The notes under the pieces were generated by a model that was given only the letters and a program-made list of their open reading frames with translations, was not told the origin of the DNA and made no database searches. This document shows, piece by piece, positions 28,513-41,655 of a stretch of DNA of 48,157 nucleotides. Position 1 is the first letter of the stretch. Each line of letters begins with the position of its first letter. The stretch lies in NCBI GenBank assembly GCA_035389045.1, contig DAOORA010000030.1:1-48157 (forward strand), given 5' to 3'. Made by a program: the position numbers and the translations under genes. Origin of the DNA: Bacteroidales bacterium. GTDB taxonomy: Bacteria > Bacteroidota > Bacteroidia > Bacteroidales > CAIWKO01.

Positions 28513-29154
28513 TTATTTTTTATAAACCATAAATCCATTAGAAATATTACCTGATACCGAATCACTGAAATGGATTTCAAAAACTGTGGTGTCATTGATG
28601 GTTTTGACCAGGCCGTTACCTTCAAATTTGTGTGTGACCGCAGGATTACCCGCCTGGGCAGTTTGTGCAGGGAAGCGGATCGTATCGTTTGAAATATCTG
28701 CAAACACTGATGCGTTTGGGTATGAAGCAAAACCGGCGATCCATATCCTTTTGTTTACAACGGTCGAAACCGTCGCTGAAGCTGCAAAATTTGTGGTGTC
28801 GGTCGTCAGATAACATGTACCTGCATAATTTCCGCTGTATAACTCAGCCTCATTCTTTACAACAACCCTTCTTATGGCTTCACCGGTATTTCCGGAAGCG
28901 TCCGTAGCCGAGTATACGATATAATATGTTCCTGCAAAATCCGGGTTCACTTCTCCTGTGATGTTCACAGAAACGGCGCCATCGGTATTGTCGTTAGCGT
29001 CAGCACCAGGATCGGTAAAAGAGGTATTAAGGATAATGGTCATTGATGAATTGCCCCGAAGTGTTACCACCGGATTCTCATCATCTTTTTTTTTGCAGGA
29101 AACGAGGAAAAACAGCAAAAGTAAAAAGATAAGATATTTGACTTTTAATATCAT
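28513..29154 (-). CDS. DUF5011 (Ig-like) lipoprotein with C-terminal beta domain
   Basis: Lipobox LVSC followed by KKKDDE (surface-export-like signal); PVVTL.G, FTDPGA.A.D..DG and Y.ATD.SGN. Confidence 0.85.
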   Translation of the reverse strand: MILKVKYLIFLLLLFFLVSCKKKDDENPVVTLRGNSSMTIILNTSFTDPGADANDNTDGAVSVNITGEVNPDFAGTYYIVYSATDASGNTGEAIRRVVVKNEAELYSGNYAGTCYLTTDTTNFAASATVSTVVNKRIWIAGFASYPNASVFADISNDTIRFPAQTAQAGNPAVTHKFEGNGLVKTINDTTVFEIHFSDSVSGNISNGFMVYKK

Positions 29155-29171
29155 GATTTCATTAATGACAA

Positions 29172-29810
29172 CTAATTTCTTGTATAAATACCATGACCGG
29201 AATAATCAATAATGCCGTTCGAAATGAAATAATTGATGATAATTATCGAATCTGAAGAGAATGTCCCCGACCCATAGAAGGTCTTATTTTCCGGTATAGC
29301 ACCGCAGAATTTTGTCTGAGTGGGAACAAGAATAACGGTATCGTTCAGTGTTGCGTAAACAGAAGCATTTTCGATGCCCGCAAACTTTGTGAACAGTATT
29401 ATATTATTTGTTGTGTCAGTAAACGAAATGGTATCAATATAAGTAGTATCAACTTCTGCACCAATATAATTGACAATTTGATAATTCCCCGACAAAAATG
29501 GGGCTGCATCAACAATGACCTTACGGGTTGCACTGGCCGTATTTCCTGCAGCATCGGCACAGGAATAAGTTAAGGTATATTCTCCGGCCGATTTCATATT
29601 GACGGTTCCGCTTGAAGTTATGGTGAGGCTGCCATCGGTGTCATCGGTTGCGACGGCTCCTGCATCTGCATACGCTGAAGCGCTGCCCAAGATCACTACA
29701 TGCGGGTTTGCTCCCTGTAAAGTGATTACAGGAACCGTTGTATCATTTTTTTTACAGGAACCGCTAAATAATAATATCGTTAAGGCCAATAATAAGGTGA
29801 ATTTTTTCAT
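29172..29810 (-). CDS. DUF5011 (Ig-like) lipoprotein with C-terminal beta domain
   Basis: Lipobox SGSC; PVITLQG, YADAGA.ATD..DG and Y...D.AGN; own TAAATTTG at 29849-29856 (minus). Confidence 0.85.
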   Translation of the reverse strand: MKKFTLLLALTILLFSGSCKKNDTTVPVITLQGANPHVVILGSASAYADAGAVATDDTDGSLTITSSGTVNMKSAGEYTLTYSCADAAGNTASATRKVIVDAAPFLSGNYQIVNYIGAEVDTTYIDTISFTDTTNNIILFTKFAGIENASVYATLNDTVILVPTQTKFCGAIPENKTFYGSGTFSSDSIIIINYFISNGIIDYSGHGIYTRN

Positions 29811-29895
29811 GCCTGTCTGATTTGTTACAATGCTTTTTTTAATAATGTCAAATTTACAATTTTATTTTCTGACAGCCGAAAAAAAGAAAATACTG

Positions 29896-29935
29896 AAAAA
29901 AAAATCCCGATTGAAACAACCGGGATTTTCTTTTT
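29896..29935 (-). terminator. Rho-independent terminator
   Basis: AAAATCCCGATTG-AAA-CAACCGGGATTTT hairpin with flanking A/T tracts, after the stop at 29948. Confidence 0.8.
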
Positions 29936-29947
29936 GAGATGATTGAT

Positions 29948-30610
29948 TTATTGTTTTGTGAAGACATCAACGCCGGTATAAGTAGCATCTGATACTTCAG
30001 TCAGGTTAACTGTAATAACCATAGGAGTGGTGGTAACAGCACCGCTTCCTGTGAAAGTACGCATCATAGCCGGGGAACCGCAGTTAAAGGACTGCTGTGG
30101 CATGTTGATCGTGGTGTGACTTGCGTTCATGTCGGCATATGGGGTACATCCTGTGTAATATGCAAACCTGCTGAAAATAATACGGTTATTAACGGTTGAA
30201 GACACCGTAATTGTTTCTGTCCATGCAAAATGCCATGTTCCGCTTATTCCATCATCAGTGGCGTTGTAAGTTCCGGCAAAAGCTTTGGCGTCATTTTCAA
30301 CAATAACTGTTCTGGTTGCGGTACCTGTATTTCCGTCAACATCGGTTGCTGAATAAGTAAATGTATAAGTTCCTGCAAGGTCTTTGTTGAAGGCCGGGGT
30401 TGACGTGGTGGTAACAGTTAATACAGTTCCATCTTCAGCAGTTGCAGTAGCACCCGGATCAGTGAATGCGGCATTCAGCGGTGTAGTAATGGTTGCATCA
30501 CCAACTAAAGTAACAGTAGGGGCAACTGTGTTCGTTTTATCGCAACCTGTAAAGGTAAGTGCACCAGCGATCAGAACAATCGAAGCAAAAATTAAAGCAA
30601 TCTTTTTCAT
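29948..30610 (-). CDS. DUF5011 (Ig-like) lipoprotein with C-terminal beta domain
   Basis: Lipobox FTGC; PTVTLVG, FTDPGATA and YSATD.DGN; promoter TACTTTTG at 30670-30677 (minus). Confidence 0.85.
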   Translation of the reverse strand: MKKIALIFASIVLIAGALTFTGCDKTNTVAPTVTLVGDATITTPLNAAFTDPGATATAEDGTVLTVTTTSTPAFNKDLAGTYTFTYSATDVDGNTGTATRTVIVENDAKAFAGTYNATDDGISGTWHFAWTETITVSSTVNNRIIFSRFAYYTGCTPYADMNASHTTINMPQQSFNCGSPAMMRTFTGSGAVTTTPMVITVNLTEVSDATYTGVDVFTKQ

Positions 30611-30777: not shown

Positions 30778-31008
30778 ATGAAAAAGTTATTCTCAGTATT
30801 AGTTATCGCTGGTATGGCAGCTCTCGTAGCTTGCGGACCAAGCGCAGAAGAAATTGCAGCAAAAGCAAAAGCAACGGCTGATTCTTTAAAAGCTATCGCA
30901 ACGGCTGATTCACTGAAAGCTGTTGCAACGGCTGATTCAATTGCTGTTGCTGAAAAAGCAAAAGCAATCGAAGATTCTATCGCTGCTGCTACACCAAAGA
31001 AAAAATAA
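30778..31008 (+). CDS. Small Ala/Lys-rich repeat lipoprotein 1
   Basis: Lipobox LVAC-GPSAEE; own promoter and terminator; paralog at 31750. Confidence 0.85.
   Translation: MKKLFSVLVIAGMAALVACGPSAEEIAAKAKATADSLKAIATADSLKAVATADSIAVAEKAKAIEDSIAAATPKKK
30871..30951 (+). repeat. Three 27-bp tandem coding repeats (ATADS-L/I)
   Basis: GCAACGGCTGATTC at 30871, 30898 and 30925. Confidence 0.9.
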
Positions 31009-31593: not shown

Positions 31594-31693
31594 NNNNNNN
31601 NNNNNNNNNNNNNNNNNNNNNNNNNNNNNNNNNNNNNNNNNNNNNNNNNNNNNNNNNNNNNNNNNNNNNNNNNNNNNNNNNNNNNNNNNNNNN
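31594..31693. other. Assembly gap (100 N)
   Basis: Run of exactly 100 N; true size unknown. Confidence 1.
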
Positions 31694-31749: not shown

Positions 31750-32055
31750 ATGAAAAAATTATTCAGTTTATTAGTAATTTCTGGCATGATAGCTCTCGTC
31801 GCTTGTGGGCCAAGCGCTGAAGAGATAGCTGCCAAAGAAAAAGCAAAACAGGATTCTATTGCTGCCGCTCAGAAAAAAATTGATGATTCTATTGCTGCTG
31901 TTCAGCAAAAAATTGATGATTCTATTGCTGCTGCCAAACAACAAGCCATAGATGATTCTATTGCCAATGCTACTAAACCGGCTTCAAAACCCAAACCCAA
32001 ACCACAACAATATCCGGGACAGCAAACCAAAAATGCTCCCAAGGGTAAAGGTTGA
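31750..32055 (+). CDS. Small Ala/Lys/Gln-rich repeat lipoprotein 2
   Basis: N-terminus near-identical to lipoprotein 1 (MKKLFS.LVI.GM.ALVACGPSAEEIAAK); TACCTTTG at 31712-31719; Pro/Lys tail. Confidence 0.85.
   Translation: MKKLFSLLVISGMIALVACGPSAEEIAAKEKAKQDSIAAAQKKIDDSIAAVQQKIDDSIAAAKQQAIDDSIANATKPASKPKPKPQQYPGQQTKNAPKGKG
31849..31965 (+). repeat. 33/33/36-bp tandem coding repeats (DSIAA)
   Basis: GATTCTATTGC cores in units starting at 31849, 31882, 31915 and 31951. Confidence 0.9.
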
Positions 32056-32803: not shown

Positions 32804-32919
32804 ACAACAAATTTAGAATTAGCTTTTCAAAAAGCATACCATAAAATTATATTTTTTTTAAAACAAACGTATAATATTTTATGATTGACTACTTTTGTGA
32901 AGCCTATAAAAATTATGAT

Positions 32920-34149
32920 ATGGAACAAAACAAAACAGTAATTATTGGTAACAAAGGCAAGGGAATCAGATCGGATTGCCAAGTTGTTATGGAGATTTCG
33001 GATTCGGGCGGAATTGTTATGGAACTGATCAGCAAAGTAAAAGCTTTGTACGGCAAATCGGTGTGTAGGGAGATCGAAAAAATTCTGGCATTTTACAGCA
33101 TCAAAAATGCCAGGGTGGTGATCGAGGATTCCGGAGCGCTTCCTTTTGTTATTGCTGCCCGCATAGAAGCAGCCGTAAAAAAACTTATTGAAACAGATAT
33201 GGAATATCTGCTGCCTTTTCTGGAAAATAACAAATATCAGACTGCGAAAGACCGGAACAGGATATCGCGCCTGTACTTACCGGGCAACGCTCCCAGTCTG
33301 ATGATCAATGCGGGTATTCATCATCCTGACGGGATAATTCTTGATCTTGAGGATGCTGTGGCCGCCGACAAGAAGTTTGAAGCCCGTTTTATGGTGCGTA
33401 ATGCTTTGCGTAATCTGGATTTTTATGGCGCCGAACGTATGGTGCGCATCAATCAGGTTCCTGCCGGATTGGAGGATCTTGAATATATCGTACCTCATAA
33501 TGTGAACCTGATTTTGGTACCAAAATGCGAAGGAGCCGTGCAGATCCATGCGGTCAATAAGCGGATTGATGAGCTGAAGGCACAATACAATATTTCAGGA
33601 AACATCTGGCTGATGCCGATTGTTGAAAGCGCTATGGGAGTTCTTAAAGCATACGAAATAGCTGCTTCAGCAGAAAATATTGTTGCTATGGCTATAGGTC
33701 TCGAGGATTATACTGCAGATCTTGGTGTCAGACGAACGGGCGATGCAACAGAATCATTTTTTGCACGTAATATGCTTGTGAATGCCTGTAAGGCAGCCGG
33801 CATACAGGCTATTGATTCTGTGTTTTCAGATGTAGCCGATATGGAAGGCCTGAAACAGAATGTCTTGAAATCCAAAGCACTCGGGTTTGATGGCATGGGA
33901 TGTATACACCCTCGCCAGATCAGGGTGATACATGAAAATTTTGCTCCTGATACCGCTGAAATTGAAAAAGCAAAAAAAATCGTTAATGCTTTTATCGAAG
34001 CAGGGGAAAAAGGCCTGGGAGTGGTGTCGCTTGGAACAAAAATGATTGATGCCCCTGTTGTAAAAAGGGCTCAGAAAACAATTGACCTGGCCATATCCAT
34101 GGGAAAAATTTCAAAAAACTGGAGGGAAGAAGGCCATGAAAAAATATGA
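32920..34149 (+). CDS. citE: Citrate lyase ACP (CitD-like) domain fused to citryl-CoA lyase (CitE) domain
   Basis: N-terminal S.V...YG..I......D.GAL..VI.ARIEAAV is CitD-like; LYLPGN, ILDLEDAV, MVRIN, VPKCE, PIVES, GLEDY, GCIHPRQ and MIDAPVV are CitE motifs. TACTTTTG at 32890-32897 supports the ATG at 32920. Confidence 0.9.
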   Translation: MEQNKTVIIGNKGKGIRSDCQVVMEISDSGGIVMELISKVKALYGKSVCREIEKILAFYSIKNARVVIEDSGALPFVIAARIEAAVKKLIETDMEYLLPFLENNKYQTAKDRNRISRLYLPGNAPSLMINAGIHHPDGIILDLEDAVAADKKFEARFMVRNALRNLDFYGAERMVRINQVPAGLEDLEYIVPHNVNLILVPKCEGAVQIHAVNKRIDELKAQYNISGNIWLMPIVESAMGVLKAYEIAASAENIVAMAIGLEDYTADLGVRRTGDATESFFARNMLVNACKAAGIQAIDSVFSDVADMEGLKQNVLKSKALGFDGMGCIHPRQIRVIHENFAPDTAEIEKAKKIVNAFIEAGEKGLGVVSLGTKMIDAPVVKRAQKTIDLAISMGKISKNWREEGHEKI

Positions 34150-35695
34150 TAAACTGGTGACTAATGCCATCGGACGCATAGTTCCGACTATTGTAAATGA
34201 GAAACCTGTTGTTCCTTTTATGGGAGTGGGAAAATACAGGCCCACCGGAGTAAAACATGCTCCGCCTGTTCCTACTTGTCTCGACTATCCGGATGATGGC
34301 ATCAAAACCGTGGCATCGTTGGCCGAAGCTCTGAAAAAATGCGGACTGAAAGATGGCATGACCATCAGTACACACCATCATCTTCGCGACGGAGACCTGG
34401 TTAGTAACACAGTTTTCGACATAGCCCATGAAATGGGCGTTAAAGACCTGGTTTGGTTTCCTTCGGCTTCTTTTCCATGCCATGATCCCCTGATAAAATA
34501 CCTCGAAGACGGAACGATCAACCGTATCGAAGGCTCAATGAATGGCCCCCTTGGAAAATTTACCAGCAAAGGCGGCATGAAAGGTTGTGCCGTGTTGCGT
34601 TCGCATGGAGGCCGTGTGCAGGCTATTCAGGATGGGGAGGTGCATATCGATATCGCTGTGATTGCAGCTCCTGTCGCTGACCCGTTCGGGAATGCCAATG
34701 CTCTCAGTGGCAAGTCTGCCTGCGGAATACTGGGCTATTCGCTGGCTGATTACATGTATGCCGATAAAGTGATTGTGGTTACCGACAATTTGATTCCTTT
34801 CCCATGTATGCCTATGCAGGTACAAGGTAATTATGTTGACTATGTAGTGGTAGTTGACCAAATCGGAATTCCAGAAAAAATCGTTTCCGGTACAACGGAA
34901 GTTACCAAAAGCCCTGACCGGCTATTATTAGCCGAATGGACTGCACAGTTCTGTGATGAAGCAGGTTTGCTGCGTGACGGATGCAGTATGCAGTCGGGTG
35001 CCGGCGGAACCTCGCTGGCCGTGGGGGTTTATATGGACCAGATACTGAAATCCCGTGGCGAAAAAGCCCGTTTTGCTTTCGGAGGCAGCACAAAATACAT
35101 GGTTCAGATGTTGGAAAACGGTACACTTGACTATATCCTTGATGCACAGGCTTTCGACCTCGAAGCGGTACGTTCTGCCCGTGAAAACCCGAACCATATT
35201 GATTTATCCGTATTTCAGGCCTATAATTTTCATAGCAAGGGAAACTATACTTCCATGACCGACATCATGATACTGGGCGCTACCGAAATTGATGTTAATT
35301 TTAACGGAAACGTGGTAACTCATTCCGACGGCCTTCTGTTGCATGGCATTGGTGGGTGGCAAAACTGCCTTCATGCAAAAACTGTAATCATTCCCATTCC
35401 TCTTTTCAGGGATCGTATCCCTGTGCTGGTTGACCAGGTAACTACCGTATGCGGCCCCGGTGAAATGATAGATGTGATTGTTACTGAACGAGGCATTGCC
35501 ATTAATCCATTGCGCACGGACCTGATTGAAAAGATGAAAAATACGTCTTTACCCATCAAAACTATTCAGCAGCTTAAAGCAGAAGCTGATGCAATATGCG
35601 GCCCCCCTGAAAAAGTTGAACTGGATGACGAAATCGTTGCCGTAATAAAATGGGTTGACGGTACGGTAATCGATTCGGTGCGAAAGGTAAAGTAA
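34136..35695 (+). CDS. citF: Citrate lyase alpha subunit / citrate CoA-transferase, copy 1 (divergent)
   Basis: GLKDGMTISTHHH.R.GD, RSHGGR, HIDIAVIAAP.AD.FGN, GAGG.SLA, ILGATEID.NFN and TERGIAINP; overlaps the citE stop. Confidence 0.9.
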   Translation: MKKYDKLVTNAIGRIVPTIVNEKPVVPFMGVGKYRPTGVKHAPPVPTCLDYPDDGIKTVASLAEALKKCGLKDGMTISTHHHLRDGDLVSNTVFDIAHEMGVKDLVWFPSASFPCHDPLIKYLEDGTINRIEGSMNGPLGKFTSKGGMKGCAVLRSHGGRVQAIQDGEVHIDIAVIAAPVADPFGNANALSGKSACGILGYSLADYMYADKVIVVTDNLIPFPCMPMQVQGNYVDYVVVVDQIGIPEKIVSGTTEVTKSPDRLLLAEWTAQFCDEAGLLRDGCSMQSGAGGTSLAVGVYMDQILKSRGEKARFAFGGSTKYMVQMLENGTLDYILDAQAFDLEAVRSARENPNHIDLSVFQAYNFHSKGNYTSMTDIMILGATEIDVNFNGNVVTHSDGLLLHGIGGWQNCLHAKTVIIPIPLFRDRIPVLVDQVTTVCGPGEMIDVIVTERGIAINPLRTDLIEKMKNTSLPIKTIQQLKAEADAICGPPEKVELDDEIVAVIKWVDGTVIDSVRKVK

Positions 35696-35778: not shown

Positions 35779-35963
35779 TATGGTAACTTTGAATAATTGT
35801 TAAGATTTGGTTTTCTTACCAATAATTTATTATTTTTGGATACTGTAATAGTCTTTGCTAACAGCAATTTATGTTATTTGCAATGTCTGGATTCCACTAA
35901 TAGTGTGTCCGGCATGATCATACTACGGAAAAAAATCTTACTTAAACAGGAGGGAAGTTGAAA

Positions 35964-37526
35964 ATGAAAAAATATGATAAACTTGTAGTAAATGCACTGG
36001 GACGCACAGTGCCGACCATTATTAACGGGAAACCGGCCATTCCATATCTGGGTGTTGGAAAATACAGGCCTTCAGGGGTGAAACATGCTCCTCCGGTTGC
36101 CACTTGTGCCGATTATCCTGCCGATGGCAATAAAACGGTGCCGTCATTGAAAGAAGCCTTATTAAAATCCGGGCTTAAAGATGGGATGACGATTTCTACG
36201 CACCACCATTTCCGCAACGGAGACCTTATCGCACAACAGATCTTTGAGATCGCTTCGGAAATGGGCGTGAAGGATCTGATGTGGTTTCCTTCAGCATCTT
36301 TTGAATGTCATGCTCCTATGACAAAATATCTTGAAGACGGGACGATACATCATATTGAAGGCAGTATGAACGGTTCCCTGGGGCGTTTTACTTCGGAAGG
36401 AAAAATGAAAGGACTTGGCGTGCTGAGGTCACACGGTGGCAGATATCAGGCCGTGCAGGATGGTGATGTACATATTGATATTGCTGTCATTGCGGCTCCT
36501 ACCGCCGATGCTTTCGGAAATGCCACTGGCGACAGGGGGCCTGCAGCATGCGGGCTTCTCGGTTTTGCACTGGCCGACTCACAGTATGCCGACAAGGTGA
36601 TTGTAGTGACTGACAATCTGGTTCCTTTTCCCTGCATTCCCTGGCAGATACATGGCAATTATGTGGACTATGTTGTGGTGCTTGACCAGATTGGCATACC
36701 CGAAAAGATCGTTTCAGGTACAACCGAAATCACCAAAAGCCCCGACCGCTTGTTGTTAGCCGAATGGTCGGCGCAGTTCTGCGATGAAGCAGGCATTATT
36801 CGCAATGGATTCTCTTTTCAGGCCGGCGCCGGCGGAACAGCGCTGTCCATAGGAATATATTTTGCCGATATTTTGCGTCAGCGGGGCATGAAGGCCCGTT
36901 TTGCACGCGGAGGCAGTAACAAATACCTGGTGCAGATGCTCGAAGAAGGATTGACGGATTATATCCTTGATGGACAGACTTTCGACCTGGAAGGCGTACG
37001 CTCCATGCGCGAAAATCCGGGACATATCAACACCAGCCCGTTCACCAGTTATAACTACCACGGCAAAGGAAACTTTGCTTCTATGATTGATGTGGTAATT
37101 TTAGGGGCTACTGAGGTGGATGTCAACTTCAATGCCAATGTGGTGACACATTCCGATGGTACCCTGCTGCACGGCATTGGAGGATGGCAAAATTGCCTGT
37201 TCTCAAAATGCACCATCCTGCCCATACCCTTGTTCCGCGACAGAATACCCGTCATCATTGATGAGGTGACCACGATTTGCGGTCCGGGTGAGCTGATCGA
37301 TGTGATAGTTACCGAACGCGGTATCGCTATCAATCCGCTGCGTACCGATCTAATTGAAAAAATGAAGCATTCAAAGCTTCCGATCAAGACCATTCAGCAG
37401 CTCAAAGCAGAAGCAGAGGCCATTTGCGGAGTGCCTGAAAAGATTGAATTCGACGAAGAAATCGTGGCTGTAATCAAGTGGGTGGATGGTACTGTGATTG
37501 ATTCAGTGAGAAAACTGAAGATATAA
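35964..37526 (+). CDS. citF: Citrate lyase alpha subunit / citrate CoA-transferase, copy 2
   Basis: Same CitF motifs (HHHFRNGD, GFSFQAGAGG, Q.FDL); about 75% identical to copy 1 by manual count over the first ~280 aa. Confidence 0.92.
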   Translation: MKKYDKLVVNALGRTVPTIINGKPAIPYLGVGKYRPSGVKHAPPVATCADYPADGNKTVPSLKEALLKSGLKDGMTISTHHHFRNGDLIAQQIFEIASEMGVKDLMWFPSASFECHAPMTKYLEDGTIHHIEGSMNGSLGRFTSEGKMKGLGVLRSHGGRYQAVQDGDVHIDIAVIAAPTADAFGNATGDRGPAACGLLGFALADSQYADKVIVVTDNLVPFPCIPWQIHGNYVDYVVVLDQIGIPEKIVSGTTEITKSPDRLLLAEWSAQFCDEAGIIRNGFSFQAGAGGTALSIGIYFADILRQRGMKARFARGGSNKYLVQMLEEGLTDYILDGQTFDLEGVRSMRENPGHINTSPFTSYNYHGKGNFASMIDVVILGATEVDVNFNANVVTHSDGTLLHGIGGWQNCLFSKCTILPIPLFRDRIPVIIDEVTTICGPGELIDVIVTERGIAINPLRTDLIEKMKHSKLPIKTIQQLKAEAEAICGVPEKIEFDEEIVAVIKWVDGTVIDSVRKLKI

Positions 37527-37595: not shown

Positions 37596-40500
37596 TTAAC
37601 GTATCAATGTCACGTTACCTTTCTTGGAGTACTGGAGTTTGTTGTGACACCAGGCGTCAAGATAATAGACAAATACACCGGGATCGCATATTTTTCCTTT
37701 GAATTTTCCGTCCCAGCCTTTATTAATGTCCTGGGTTTCGAAAACTTTTTCACCCCAGCGGTCATATACCAGGAAATTAAATTCCGAGATCATCTTGCTG
37801 CGAACGAAAAGAATGTCATTTTTACCGTCGCCGTTGGGGGTAAAGGCATTAGGAACATAAATATATGGTTCATCGCAGAAGACTTCGAGAACAATGATTT
37901 TTAATGTGTCGGTATAGATACAACCATAAGGGTCAGCAATCGTCAGATAATAGGTGGTGGTTTCTCCCGGGCTGGCAACAGGATTGGGCTGATAAGGATT
38001 ATCCAGTCCGGTAGTGGGCGTCCAGGTATACGTGCAGTTCGGTATTTGTGTGGCATGAAGCCCCGTGGATTGTCCCTGATAAATAGTGTCCTTGTCGGAA
38101 TATACCTGAACATGGGCAAACACGGAATCAATTACAATGGAAAAGGCATTGGAGAGCTGGCAAAGTCTTGAATCGGTTATAGTTACATCATAGTATCCCG
38201 CGCACAGGTTTTCAAGAGGATTTGTTGTCTGGTAGTTATTCCATATATATGAATAAGGAGGAGTGCCTCCTGCAGGAACTAATGCAATAGATCCGATACA
38301 GGCTTCATCGCAGGGGATATTTTGCAACTGAACCGAGGTGGTAAGTTCATCAGGTTCTGTTAATGTCACCGAAGAAACAGAAATACATTGTGAGGCATCG
38401 GTCACGGTGACGGAGTAAGTACCTGCACAAAGTCCGGAGTTTGTTGCAGTGGTAATTCCATTACTCCAAAGGTAAGAAAAAGGAGGACTTCCACTGTTAA
38501 TAGTTACAGAGACGATGCCATTGCATGAGTCATGGCAGGTGGGTGAAACAAAATTCAGGCTATCAAGCACTACTACAAAACTCACAAAGATGCTGTCGCG
38601 CACAGTACAGTATCCATTGCTCACTTCGACGTAAAAATAGGATGGTGTGGTAATATTTGCAGACATGTGCGGATCGGAAGATGAGGTATTCAGCCAATCG
38701 GTAAAATTATGGTTCGACGACCAGTGGAAATAGTTGGCTCCTTGTCCGCTGTTAGCTGTAAGGACAATATGTCCGTCGCAGGTCGCCGTGTCCACGCTGG
38801 GTATAGCGTCTAACATAAAGATCTCGACCGTTTGCCGGAGGGTATCCGTACAGGTTCCGTTGGAAACTAACAGGGTATAAGTGATGGTTGCCGGAGGGTG
38901 TGCGATGGGGTTGCAGCTGTGAGGATCTGAAAGGTAGATGGAGGGCAGCCAGTTATAGGTAACGGTTGAATCGCCGGATGTCAATACCCCTATCTGGGTG
39001 AAATCGCCGGCACATATATGTTTAGTGGGGAGGGTATCGCTGGAATTTGACAAGACGAGAATCTGTTTGGAGATCGTGTCGGCAAAATTACAGGAGCCCG
39101 TATCGGATGCCACCAGTGTAACGGTATATAATCCTGATTGGGTATAATAATGAACGGGGTTTTCATATGTTGAAAACTGGCCGTCGCCAAAGTTCCAGAG
39201 ATAATCCATTCCGGAGCCTCCGGAATAAGAATTGTTGATAAAATGCACTGAATCGGGAAGGCAGATCACCGGTGGTAAATGAAAATCGGCAATGGTAACC
39301 GGCAGTATAAAATCAAATTTAAATGTACCATTATTGCAGTTTACACTGTTGTTAGCATTGGACCAGGCTCCGGGAGTGGTCGGAAAGTCGTCGAAGCCGC
39401 CGCAACCGGCACATACCGACTGGTATATTTTCCCTTTTCTGTCGAATCTTGAAGTTCCTCCGTCAACATGTTCGGCGCTGCTGGGCCCGCCAAAATAGGT
39501 GCCATATTCCATACCCGAGGCATCATCTCTGATGACCAATAAGTAGAAGTCGTTATTATCGGTGGTATTTTGAAAAGCATTTCCGGAGATAGGCAAGCCG
39601 CTGGTGCCACCGGTGCTGTTCAGCGAGCCTCCCCATCCTGATAAATATATTTTTGAACACAGGTCGACCAGGAAAGCCGTGGGTGAAATATCGGGGCCGC
39701 CGTTGCCTGTTCCGAAAGCGGTGGACCAGTAGCGGCTGCTGAGATCGGGATAAAATTTCGTCACATATTGCCCACCGCCCGGATGATTCCAAAGGGCGTT
39801 CTGGATGTATGTATTGCCCGGATCGGCAGTTTGTCCGAACACAAAAATATACCCCTGCTTGTTTCTGTCCATTAAATAGGTCTGGTCATAATATGCAGAA
39901 CCATAATATGTTGATGCGGCAATAGCATTACCATTAGGGGCAATCTGTGTAACAAATCCATCAGCAGACCCTCCGTTGTAAACCGTCTGGTAGGCTCCCG
40001 GAGTGGTGGGGAAATTCAATGAGGTAGTTCCTCCGCAAACATAAATATTCATGCTGTCGTCAATCACAACACCGTATACAGCATCAAGCCCGGAACCTCC
40101 GAGATACGATGACCAGATGATGTTATGGAGATTATTGTCAAGAACAGTAATGCAGCCGTCGAGGGTATCACCGCCGTAGGTGGTCTGAAAGGCATTAGGG
40201 GTGATGGGAAAATCATGTGATGCGGTGGTGGATACGATATATACGTTGTTGTTATCGTCAATGTCTATTTCTCCCCTGGCGCCATCGGCATAATTATGCG
40301 ATAATGGAGCATAGAAGTTTATTCCGTCGTTGAGGCTGCCTCCCAAAAACGTAGAGGCAAGCAGCTGATTTCCAGCCTGGTTGAGTTTGGCGACGTACAT
40401 ATCCACACCCAGGTTGAACGTAAGCACCCAGTCGTAGGTTATATCCGTGCCACCGCTGAATATCGGATCGTTTGGGGCGCCGGCCATCGGAAAATCCGAT

Positions 40501-41585
40501 GAACCTGTAGTGCCGAAAACCAGGAGGTTATTATTTTTATCAACAATGATGCTGTGCGGCAGGTCGTTCCGCGATCCTCCCAGGTACGTGGCATACACAC
40601 GGTTATGGCCGGTGGTGTCATATTTGATGATGGCAACATCACAGCCGCCGTAATAGGTTCCTTCTCCTCCCGCAAAATTGACCTGAAAAGCTCCAGGAGA
40701 AACCGGGTATCCATTGGATATGTCGTTGAAACAGATCCCTCCTGAATAAGTATAGCCATAGTCATCGTATGTCGCCGTAAAGCCCCAGTTATCCGCCAGT
40801 GAACCGGTATATGTCGAAAAAATCAGGATGGGGTCAATGACCAGATCATACTCTTTATCATAGCCCTCGGGAAATTCGAAGCTTACACGGTTTTTATGCA
40901 GGGCATACCGGCAGGGAACTTCTTTTTTGCTTCCGTTAATCATCTGAAATGCAACAGGTGCAAGTTCAGTGACTTGATTTACTGATGTCTTGATGATCAG
41001 GTTATGGTGCTGTATCGAAATATCATTAACACCTTCATAGCCGATGACGATCTTGTTTGGATTGGCGCCTTTATGTATTAAAAACTGGTATTTCAGCAGA
41101 TGATTTTCCTCGAATAACTCCATGTCGATGTTGTTATACAGGTTGACATAAGCTATTTTGCTGTAATTATGAATATTGGATCTCCATTTGGATTTATCAT
41201 TTCCCAGGTAATAATTTGCGTAGTCACTGCCGCAGCCGGATGCCTGTATTTCAACATCTTTGTTGCAATTAATAAAACTGGCCGAGTAAGCATGATAATT
41301 GATGATAAATTCAGAGGGATCGATAACCGCATGATGGTTGTGTAATCTTAATTTATTTGTTAAAAGCCTATAATACTTCGCTTGGTCACGAAATACAAAC
41401 TGCAAACGGTTGGGCAGACATTGAAGATATCCTTCATCCAAATCGGTTTTATATTTTATCTGCCCGTCCCATTGCCCTTTATTTTCTACAAACCGCAGCT
41501 GACTTGAGGTAAGTGAGTCCTTTTCGTGGGAGGTGGCAACCAAACTGAACAAAATAAATACAGGCAGAAGTAAATATTTATGCAT
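37596..41585 (-). CDS. Large T9SS type B CTD (gliding motility-associated C-terminal domain) surface protein with SBBP-like propeller, PKD and SprB-like repeats
   Basis: FVENKGQW N-domain, LVIDP.LIFSTY.G, T.S.DFP.T..A.Q repeats, WNFGDG (PKD), GTPPYSY.W, and YVPNAFTPNGDGKND..YDRWGEKVF..WDG..GNVTLIR; TAAATTTG at 41604-41611. Confidence 0.9.
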   Translation of the reverse strand: MHKYLLLPVFILFSLVATSHEKDSLTSSQLRFVENKGQWDGQIKYKTDLDEGYLQCLPNRLQFVFRDQAKYYRLLTNKLRLHNHHAVIDPSEFIINYHAYSASFINCNKDVEIQASGCGSDYANYYLGNDKSKWRSNIHNYSKIAYVNLYNNIDMELFEENHLLKYQFLIHKGANPNKIVIGYEGVNDISIQHHNLIIKTSVNQVTELAPVAFQMINGSKKEVPCRYALHKNRVSFEFPEGYDKEYDLVIDPILIFSTYTGSLADNWGFTATYDDYGYTYSGGICFNDISNGYPVSPGAFQVNFAGGEGTYYGGCDVAIIKYDTTGHNRVYATYLGGSRNDLPHSIIVDKNNNLLVFGTTGSSDFPMAGAPNDPIFSGGTDITYDWVLTFNLGVDMYVAKLNQAGNQLLASTFLGGSLNDGINFYAPLSHNYADGARGEIDIDDNNNVYIVSTTASHDFPITPNAFQTTYGGDTLDGCITVLDNNLHNIIWSSYLGGSGLDAVYGVVIDDSMNIYVCGGTTSLNFPTTPGAYQTVYNGGSADGFVTQIAPNGNAIAASTYYGSAYYDQTYLMDRNKQGYIFVFGQTADPGNTYIQNALWNHPGGGQYVTKFYPDLSSRYWSTAFGTGNGGPDISPTAFLVDLCSKIYLSGWGGSLNSTGGTSGLPISGNAFQNTTDNNDFYLLVIRDDASGMEYGTYFGGPSSAEHVDGGTSRFDRKGKIYQSVCAGCGGFDDFPTTPGAWSNANNSVNCNNGTFKFDFILPVTIADFHLPPVICLPDSVHFINNSYSGGSGMDYLWNFGDGQFSTYENPVHYYTQSGLYTVTLVASDTGSCNFADTISKQILVLSNSSDTLPTKHICAGDFTQIGVLTSGDSTVTYNWLPSIYLSDPHSCNPIAHPPATITYTLLVSNGTCTDTLRQTVEIFMLDAIPSVDTATCDGHIVLTANSGQGANYFHWSSNHNFTDWLNTSSSDPHMSANITTPSYFYVEVSNGYCTVRDSIFVSFVVVLDSLNFVSPTCHDSCNGIVSVTINSGSPPFSYLWSNGITTATNSGLCAGTYSVTVTDASQCISVSSVTLTEPDELTTSVQLQNIPCDEACIGSIALVPAGGTPPYSYIWNNYQTTNPLENLCAGYYDVTITDSRLCQLSNAFSIVIDSVFAHVQVYSDKDTIYQGQSTGLHATQIPNCTYTWTPTTGLDNPYQPNPVASPGETTTYYLTIADPYGCIYTDTLKIIVLEVFCDEPYIYVPNAFTPNGDGKNDILFVRSKMISEFNFLVYDRWGEKVFETQDINKGWDGKFKGKICDPGVFVYYLDAWCHNKLQYSKKGNVTLIR

Positions 41586-41655
41586 TTCTCTTAGTTTTAG
41601 AAACAAATTTAAAAAAAATTATGAAAATGAAGTGAAATGTTGGATTTTTTTAATT

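Follow-up and report, generated by a model that had tools for sequence, protein, structure and literature searches.

Here we describe a putative citrate lyase that appears to have lost its cofactor arm, encoded in a 48,157-nucleotide stretch of a Bacteroidales genome (assembly GCA_035389045.1, contig DAOORA010000030.1, positions 1 to 48,157 of the forward strand), hereafter called the window. Its central gene, citDE, fuses a CitD-like domain with the acyl carrier protein (ACP) fold to a CitE-type lyase domain, and two copies of citF follow it. In canonical citrate lyase, an E-S-(S/G)-D loop of CitD bears a 2'-(5''-phosphoribosyl)-3'-dephospho-coenzyme A (CoA) arm, which CitG makes, the holo-ACP synthase CitX attaches and CitC (acetate:SH-citrate lyase ligase) primes with acetate. 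The attachment site in the CitD of Klebsiella and Escherichia coli, which we take to be Ser14, was reportedly established by Schneider, Dimroth and Bott in 2000. In the fusion, arginine is predicted at this position, and we found none of the loading and priming genes in the genome. The canonical prosthetic group is very probably absent from the citDE fusion. Given the apparent loss of both the anchor serine and all the loading genes, the enzyme probably uses free CoA. With moderate confidence, we favor a citrate-lyase-type system that would act on free CoA esters without a prosthetic group and would keep the CitD-like domain for docking.

The domain make-up of the fusion was determined with Pfam and NCBIfam. 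The N-terminal part matched PF06857 (ACP/CitD) over residues 18-88 with 57.8 bits against a cut-off of 25.1 (expectation value (E) 1.4e-15), and the C-terminal part matched PF03328 (HpcH/HpaI, the CitE fold) over residues 117-331 (E 1.5e-51). PF15617 was also matched. In NCBIfam, the N-terminal part scored 56.8 bits with TIGR01608 (citD), below the equivalog cut-off of 63.5. The best NCBIfam model for the lyase part was TIGR01588 (citE) with 270.2 bits, below the equivalog cut-off of 443.4, and the RipC model reached 155 bits on the same domain. An earlier note, made from the letters of the window without database searches, had described a CitD-CitE fusion with the motif GKGIRSDC. The open reading frame (ORF), the motif read directly and the two Pfam matches, including the alignment of the CitD-like domain to the CitD profile, bear out this description.

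The same note had placed Arg at the position of the prosthetic-group serine, leaving only the Ser directly before the Asp. To define the register, we compared 123 distinct N-domains of fusions with 120 stand-alone CitD sequences, the latter found with a canonical CitD of the same order. The two profiles aligned in hhalign with a probability of 99.6, and a second hhalign run on independent alignments of fused and canonical CitD gave 99.1. Both runs paired I16, R17, S18, D19 and C20 of the fusion with E13, S14, S15, D16 and L17 of canonical CitD, respectively. The columns were close to uniform on both sides. In canonical CitD, S14 was present in 120/120 sequences and S15 in 117/120. In the fused N-domains, R17 was present in 121/123 (His in the other two), and S18, D19 and C20 were each present in 123/123.

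The AlphaFold model of the fusion had a predicted local distance difference test score (pLDDT) of 87.8 and a predicted template modeling score of 0.87, with a pLDDT of ~71-73 in the GKGIRSDC loop; the model of canonical CitD had a pLDDT of 92.2. The N-domain of the fusion was modeled with strands at residues 6-11, 20-26, 32-38 and 64-70 and helices at 41-58 and 75-89. The order beta-loop-beta-beta-alpha-beta-alpha was common to both models. Strand 2 begins with the residue after the Asp in either model, C20 in the fusion and L17 in canonical CitD, and therefore Arg17 stands at the anchor position in the structural register too. A phmmer search of the N-domain against PDB sequences gave no match at E <= 10. 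By alignment and model, Arg17 is the predicted replacement of the anchoring Ser14, and Ser18 falls at the non-anchoring position 15. The opposite outcome considered in the earlier note, that the remaining Ser sits at the Ser14 site, is thus not what alignment and model register indicate.

We then consider the loading and priming genes. A Pfam scan of the 34 other ORFs of the window revealed no citC, citG or citX, as the earlier note had stated. Its alternative, that these genes occur elsewhere in the genome, was not borne out either: profile searches for CitG, CitX, CitC (PF08218) and MdcG gave no match in the 4.46-Mb assembly (135 contigs, completeness 96.3%). As a positive control, the CitG, CitX and CitC searches gave matches in E. 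coli. The single PF06857 match in the genome was the citDE fusion.

The distribution of these genes was determined in 151 genomes of the order, the sample used for all order counts below. PF06857 was found in 69 of the 151, as the fusion type in 67 and as stand-alone CitD in six. The fusion-type frames were ~390-445 amino acids long, with the profile matched from position 11-12 (in a few from 2-9). Four fusion frames were of odd length, two of them read or suspected as contig-end cuts and one a longer frame. The stand-alone frames were 96-108 amino acids long, with the profile matched from position 1-4. The motif AGT[LF]ESSD was present in all five stand-alone proteins that were translated, and two of the six stand-alone carriers had no fusion. 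CitG was found in 8/151 genomes and CitX in the same eight, as one citXG frame of ~460 amino acids. Strong CitC matches (E <= 3.6e-55) occurred in these eight genomes as well, and all six carriers of stand-alone CitD were among them. By comparing the fusion carriers with these genomes, we found that 62/67 had none of CitG, CitX and strong CitC; four of the five exceptional carriers also hold a complete canonical cluster. Since the loading genes were found wherever canonical CitD was present, the gene searches are sensitive enough in this lineage. In a phylum sample of 301 genomes, PF06857 was found in 22, all in frames of 397-431 amino acids, and CitX was above the cut-off in 0/301. These counts answer in the affirmative the question of whether genomes with such fusions tend to lack citC, citG and citX.

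To assess the conservation of the CitD-like domain, the N-domain (105 amino acids) was searched against 1.84 billion representative proteins, which gave 343 matches at E <= 0.001, and the best 150 of the 343 were classified. The loop read [RKH]SDC in 85 and [RKH]SD followed by a hydrophobic residue in 41, that is, R/K/H-S-D in 126/150. Ser was replaced by Ala, Thr, Asn or Asp in five and Arg was replaced in three. The canonical ESSD occurred once, and the region was absent or too divergent in 15. The loop motif dominates the best 150 of the 343 representatives, which makes R-S-D the hallmark of a large subfamily set apart from canonical CitD, and the survey of RSD versus SSD envisaged earlier comes out clearly on the side of RSD. 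Among the same 150, 82 were of at most 130 amino acids, a length at which fragments and stand-alone R-S-D proteins are not distinguishable, and only 13 of at least 300; PF06857 matches in assembled genomes were nearly all in ~400-amino-acid frames. The mean pairwise identity in 39 fusions was 56% in the CitD-like part, 49% in the linker (the lowest) and 76% in CitE. The R-S-D loop, [IV]-R-S-D when the preceding residue is counted, hardly varies over a very wide range of family members, which indicates that the CitD-like domain still has a function. The term 'vestigial', used in the earlier note for the ACP domain, therefore does not fit a domain so well conserved.

Two other features of the loop were considered and rejected. 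Cys20 as a direct thiol carrier was ruled out. Cys is found in 123/123 sequences in the close clade only, position 20 is Leu, Val, Ile or a similar hydrophobic residue in 41 of the best 150 of the 343 representatives, and the counterpart of Cys20 in canonical CitD is the hydrophobic residue that opens strand 2. It looks like a clade-specific core residue. GNKGKG as a conserved phosphate-binding loop was ruled out by its order-wide variants GNLGEK, GNTGEG, GNHGEK and GSLDTKT.

The free-CoA system that we favor would work as follows. CitF, as one or both paralogues, would transfer CoA from free acetyl-CoA to citrate, yielding acetate and citryl-CoA (EC 2.8.3.10). The CitE domain would then cleave citryl-CoA into oxaloacetate and acetyl-CoA (EC 4.1.3.34). 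Free acetyl-CoA would thus be catalytic and recycled, and the net reaction would be citrate to acetate and oxaloacetate. The CitD-like domain would be a non-carrier module, most likely docking CitE onto CitF, as MdcC bridges MdcA and MdcE, with the invariant R-S-D loop at the mouth of the transferase site. We infer that the CoA esters are free, that citrate is the substrate and that the domain serves in docking. Transferase data with free acetyl-CoA are said to originate from the subunit work of Dimroth and Eggerer. The reactions listed for EC 2.8.3.10 include both free acetyl-CoA and acetyl-dephospho-CoA (PMC8085960), which supports the earlier statement that a CitF-type transferase accepts the free ester. 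A complex prediction of CitF with the N-domain (residues 1-105) and CoA gave a score of 0.82, but one control reached 0.65, and the score thus has no bearing on binding in either direction.

Both CitF proteins scored above the equivalog cut-off of TIGR01584 (citF; 501.45 bits), CitF1 with 523.9 and CitF2 with 509.3 bits, matching positions 25-491 and 22-491 of 492, respectively. They are 76% identical to each other. In the tree, CitF1 fell into a separate paralogue clade with one copy of related locus L013 and both copies of L015. CitF2 grouped with single-copy citF and is 89% identical to the sole citF of the same-genus genome G045, of which it is the apparent orthologue. Most genomes have a single CitF.

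The closest sequence relatives of the CitE domain were malyl-CoA lyase (5ugr), human CLYBL (5vxc) and CitE (1sgj), and the top Foldseek matches were the same proteins. The lyases acting on free CoA esters that resemble the domain are malyl-CoA lyase, CLYBL with CoA and citramalyl-CoA lyase. Residues D142, E144, D145, R176, E236 and D263 were invariant in the 39 fusions; in the alignment with CLYBL, E236 and D263 are paired with its Glu and Asp, respectively, and R176 is paired with its Arg. As a separate observation, several conserved CitE residues, e.g. at E144/D145, E236 or D263, are replaced in three distant fusion-type proteins (P0385, P0295 and P0327), which suggests offshoots with other or no lyase activity.

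The neighborhood of the genes was examined in the window and in 12 related loci that were fetched. The 34 other ORFs scanned in the window are unrelated to citrate; their products include surface proteins, type IX secretion cargo, purine synthesis enzymes and acyl-CoA ligases. In all 11 readable loci, citF lies 3' of the fusion, with a small unrelated gene in between in two. A second citF is present in two of the related loci and in the window. No conserved accessory gene was found beside citDE-citF in the 12 loci. An operon for a Na+-pumping decarboxylase (epimerase, carboxyltransferase, gamma subunit, biotin carrier and beta subunit) is directly upstream on the same strand in L013 and L016. 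Phosphoenolpyruvate carboxylase adjoins citDE-citF in L017, and succinyl-CoA synthetase beta is nearby in L023. The genome of the window contains a CitMHS-family transporter elsewhere, and a 2HCT transporter was not found in it. This context would fit a path from citrate via oxaloacetate into C4 metabolism, without proving citrate as the substrate.

Citrate synthase (PF00285) had no match in the assembly of the window or in G045. We considered the fusion as a replacement of citrate synthase and rejected it, since there was no complementary pattern over the 151 genomes: citrate synthase was present in 41/67 fusion carriers and 47/84 non-carriers (odds ratio 1.24, Fisher p 0.62, with kin not independent). 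The aconitase-family and Iso_dh-family matches in the genome could be leucine-pathway enzymes.

The stretch is present in activated-sludge and digester metagenomes. Three RNA libraries contain contigs that cover parts of citDE, citF1 and citF2 at >=99%, and one contig bridges the citDE/citF1 junction, which is a weak hint that citDE-citF1-citF2 is expressed.

Several points weigh against the proposed loss of the arm and the use of free citryl-CoA. First, in the AlphaFold models the loop is one residue longer in the fusion (8 residues) than in canonical CitD (7), and the first hhalign run has a three-residue insertion (GKG) immediately ahead of the paired residues, whereas the second is gap-free. 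Because of these two features, the structural equivalence of R17 and S14 is good to about one residue only. Second, Ser18 is present in every close homologue (123/123), and an invariant loop around it is what would be expected of a modified or catalytic residue rather than of a simple scaffold. These sequences would also be compatible with a cofactor bound covalently to Ser18 by an unrecognised enzyme. Third, absence in draft genomes is never complete. One genome (G146) contains the fusion together with citXG and citC, both on a short contig, and PF08218 is weakly and partially matched, at 20-26 bits, in 10 more genomes, including four fusion carriers (G026, G033, G056 and G073). Furthermore, the lyase domain does not reach the equivalog cut-off for citE, which leaves citrate unproven as the substrate. 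Finally, RNA-library contigs can contain DNA, which limits the hint of expression.

The second of these points leads to the possibility that the carrier role is kept, with Ser18, one position off, bearing a thiol arm (4'-phosphopantetheine, or a CoA derivative made by non-homologous enzymes) and thus a tethered acyl group. The near invariance of Arg17 and the invariance of Ser18 and Asp19 in the close homologues would suit such a role, as would R/K/H-S-D in most of the best 150 of the 343 representatives. The loop also appears exposed between two antiparallel strands in the AlphaFold model, like that of MdcC, whose equivalent anchor, Ser25, lies at the tip of the loop joining two antiparallel strands (PMC5534430). 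The gene searches, however, speak against such an arm: CitX, CitG, CitC and MdcG were not found in the genome, the loading genes are also absent from 62/67 fusion carriers of the order and CitX from 22/22 of the phylum sample, and no conserved extra gene adjoins the operon in the 12 loci. The known phosphopantetheinyl transferases load carriers of another fold, which is all-helical. In addition, among the five of the best 150 in which Ser18 is Ala, Thr, Asn or Asp, two near full-length proteins (P0317 and P0325) have Ala at position 18 and keep most of the CitE residues compared, among them D142, E144, D145, R176, E236 and D263. Their Ala18 would speak modestly against an indispensable covalent role of Ser18. 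Taken together, we regard an arm on Ser18 as unlikely.

It is likewise doubtful, in our estimate, that the same free-CoA chemistry serves another substrate, such as citramalate, homocitrate or another 2-hydroxy acid, with the CitF paralogues perhaps used for different acids. Citramalate lyase is a homologous complex that is usually annotated as citrate lyase (PMC4682846), and both the low citE score of the lyase domain (270 against 443 bits) and the two CitF clades would agree with a different acid. Nevertheless, both CitF copies exceed the citF equivalog cut-off, and citE is still the best-scoring NCBIfam model for the lyase domain (270 against 155 bits for RipC). Beside the genes, neither the window nor the 12 related loci encode a mesaconase, glutamate mutase, homoaconitase or the like. 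The informative neighbors concern oxaloacetate and C4 acids instead, and CitF is single in most genomes.

A variant of the free-CoA system is that the CitD-like domain acts as a non-covalent carrier, in which Arg17 would grip a phosphate of free CoA and the domain would shuttle CoA between CitF and CitE. One candidate contact of the Arg would be the 3'-phosphate of free CoA, a group that the canonical arm, as a 3'-dephospho-CoA, lacks. If true, this would be a tethered-substrate machine without tether, loading or priming enzymes, which saves the ATP of CitC, and a second widespread channeling solution in this enzyme class, in Bacteroidota and many other phyla. We consider this variant quite improbable and retain docking as the favored role of the domain.

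That nothing is unusual, with citC, citG and citX lying in the unassembled 3.7% of a genome in 135 contigs or being borrowed from a canonical cluster like the citXG and citC of the five exceptional carriers, is hardly credible, as the same three genes would have to have escaped detection in 62/67 carriers of the order and in each of the 22 from the phylum sample, although many of these assemblies reach 99-100% completeness or are closed (G106 in one contig, G057 in five, G026 in six) and the same searches find the loading genes in every genome with stand-alone CitD.

The coordinates of the genes and domains are listed below. The start of citDE at 32920 is likely the correct one: the closest 409-amino-acid homologues begin with MEQNK, and most of the 120 homologues listed are of ~401-411 amino acids.

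Features of the citDE-citF1-citF2 region (positions are those of the window)
Feature	Position	Strand	Description
citDE fusion gene	32920..34149	+	409 amino acids plus stop; alternative upstream ATG at 32881
CitD-like (ACP-fold) domain	32920..33195	+	residues 1-92; PF06857
Loop motif GKGIRSDC	32956..32979	+	residues 13-20; codons ggc aag gga atc aga tcg gat tgc
Arg17	32968-32970	+	predicted at canonical Ser14 position
Ser18	32971-32973	+	predicted at canonical position 15
Linker	33196..33258	+	residues 93-113; mostly without regular secondary structure over 90-115 in the AlphaFold model
CitE (citryl-CoA lyase type) TIM-barrel domain	33259..34146	+	residues 114-409; PF03328
citF1	34136..35695	+	519 amino acids; PF04223, E 7.7e-144; first 14 bases shared with the end of citDE
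citF2	35964..37526	+	520 amino acids; PF04223, E 3.7e-136; alternative TTG start at 35958

Some further features were observed around the genes. Upstream of citDE, a lipoprotein-like small ORF with DSIAA repeats and a Lys/Pro-rich tail is present at 31750-32055 (+) and again at 30778-31008 (+). It had no Pfam match. The DSIAA-repeat ORF also occurs at L022 6811-7107, in a same-genus genome, and at L009 1058-1384, in a genome of another family. A scaffold gap of 100 N occupies 31594-31693, ~1.2 kb upstream of citDE. Three tandem paralogous lipoproteins of ~212-220 amino acids, with one PF16403 (bacterial surface Ig-like) domain each, are encoded at 28513-30610 (-), and a PF16403 lipoprotein-like gene is also upstream of the fusion in L015. 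On the other side, a 1336-amino-acid type IX secretion cargo (DUF7948, PKD, SprB repeats and a CHU_C tail) at 37596-41606 (-) is convergent with citF2, a neighbor shared with the same-genus genome (L022). Between citDE and citF, PF05635 (a four-helix bundle of the 23S-rRNA-intervening-sequence type) was found at L018 6594-6938 and L020 9156-9509, in different families.

In textbooks, citrate lyase stands for enzymes that depend on a cofactor arm of their own, with two enzymes for making and attaching the arm and one more for priming it. Should a large natural family do without the arm and its loaders, it would show how such a complex simplifies, or how it began. For annotation, it would alter the reading of citrate lyase genes in metagenomes: a pathway tool that demands citC, citG and citX would report an incomplete pathway for close to half of the Bacteroidales genomes in the sample. 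For engineering, the system would offer a citrate lyase of two or three genes, which should work in any host with no need for accessory genes. The enzyme is common in sludge and gut Bacteroidota.

Finally, we compared the system with those already known. It shares the CitD fold, CitE, CitF and the gene order D-E-F with the ATP-independent citrate lyase of Klebsiella pneumoniae and E. coli (EC 4.1.3.6). Unlike that enzyme, CitD is fused to CitE, Arg is predicted at Ser14, CitF is duplicated, CitG, CitX and CitC were not found in the genome, and the CitE and CitD parts are below their equivalog cut-offs. MdcC of malonate decarboxylase, in which Ser25 is loaded by MdcB and MdcG, belongs to the same PF06857 family and contacts both the transferase and a second enzyme (PMC5534430). 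MdcC is a prosthetic-group carrier, whereas in the fusion the anchor is putatively Arg and MdcG was not found in the genome. The lyase domain has its best matches, by sequence and by fold, in malyl-CoA lyase (5ugr/4l9y), human CLYBL (5vxc), citramalyl-CoA lyase (8khl) and the CitE of Mycobacterium tuberculosis, and the proposed free-CoA-thioester mode would be theirs too. Those stand-alone CitE-like lyases, however, have neither a CitD-like domain nor a CitF partner, both of which are kept and conserved here. In a literature search whose coverage left out most subscription journals, no description turned up of a CitD-type domain missing the serine, nor of a citrate lyase that does without citC, citG and citX. 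The closest described counterpart is that of Ignavibacterium album, in the same superphylum, in which a CitE-CitD fusion (IALB_1147) and CitF (IALB_1146) were noted in 2012 (PMC3362086). By the description in that paper, it is likewise a two-gene lyase with a fused beta-gamma subunit; it was treated as an ordinary ATP-independent citrate lyase, and the accessible part of the text mentions neither the serine nor the loading genes. The fusion itself was therefore already known, and its anchor-less, loader-less form appears to be common in Bacteroidota and beyond.

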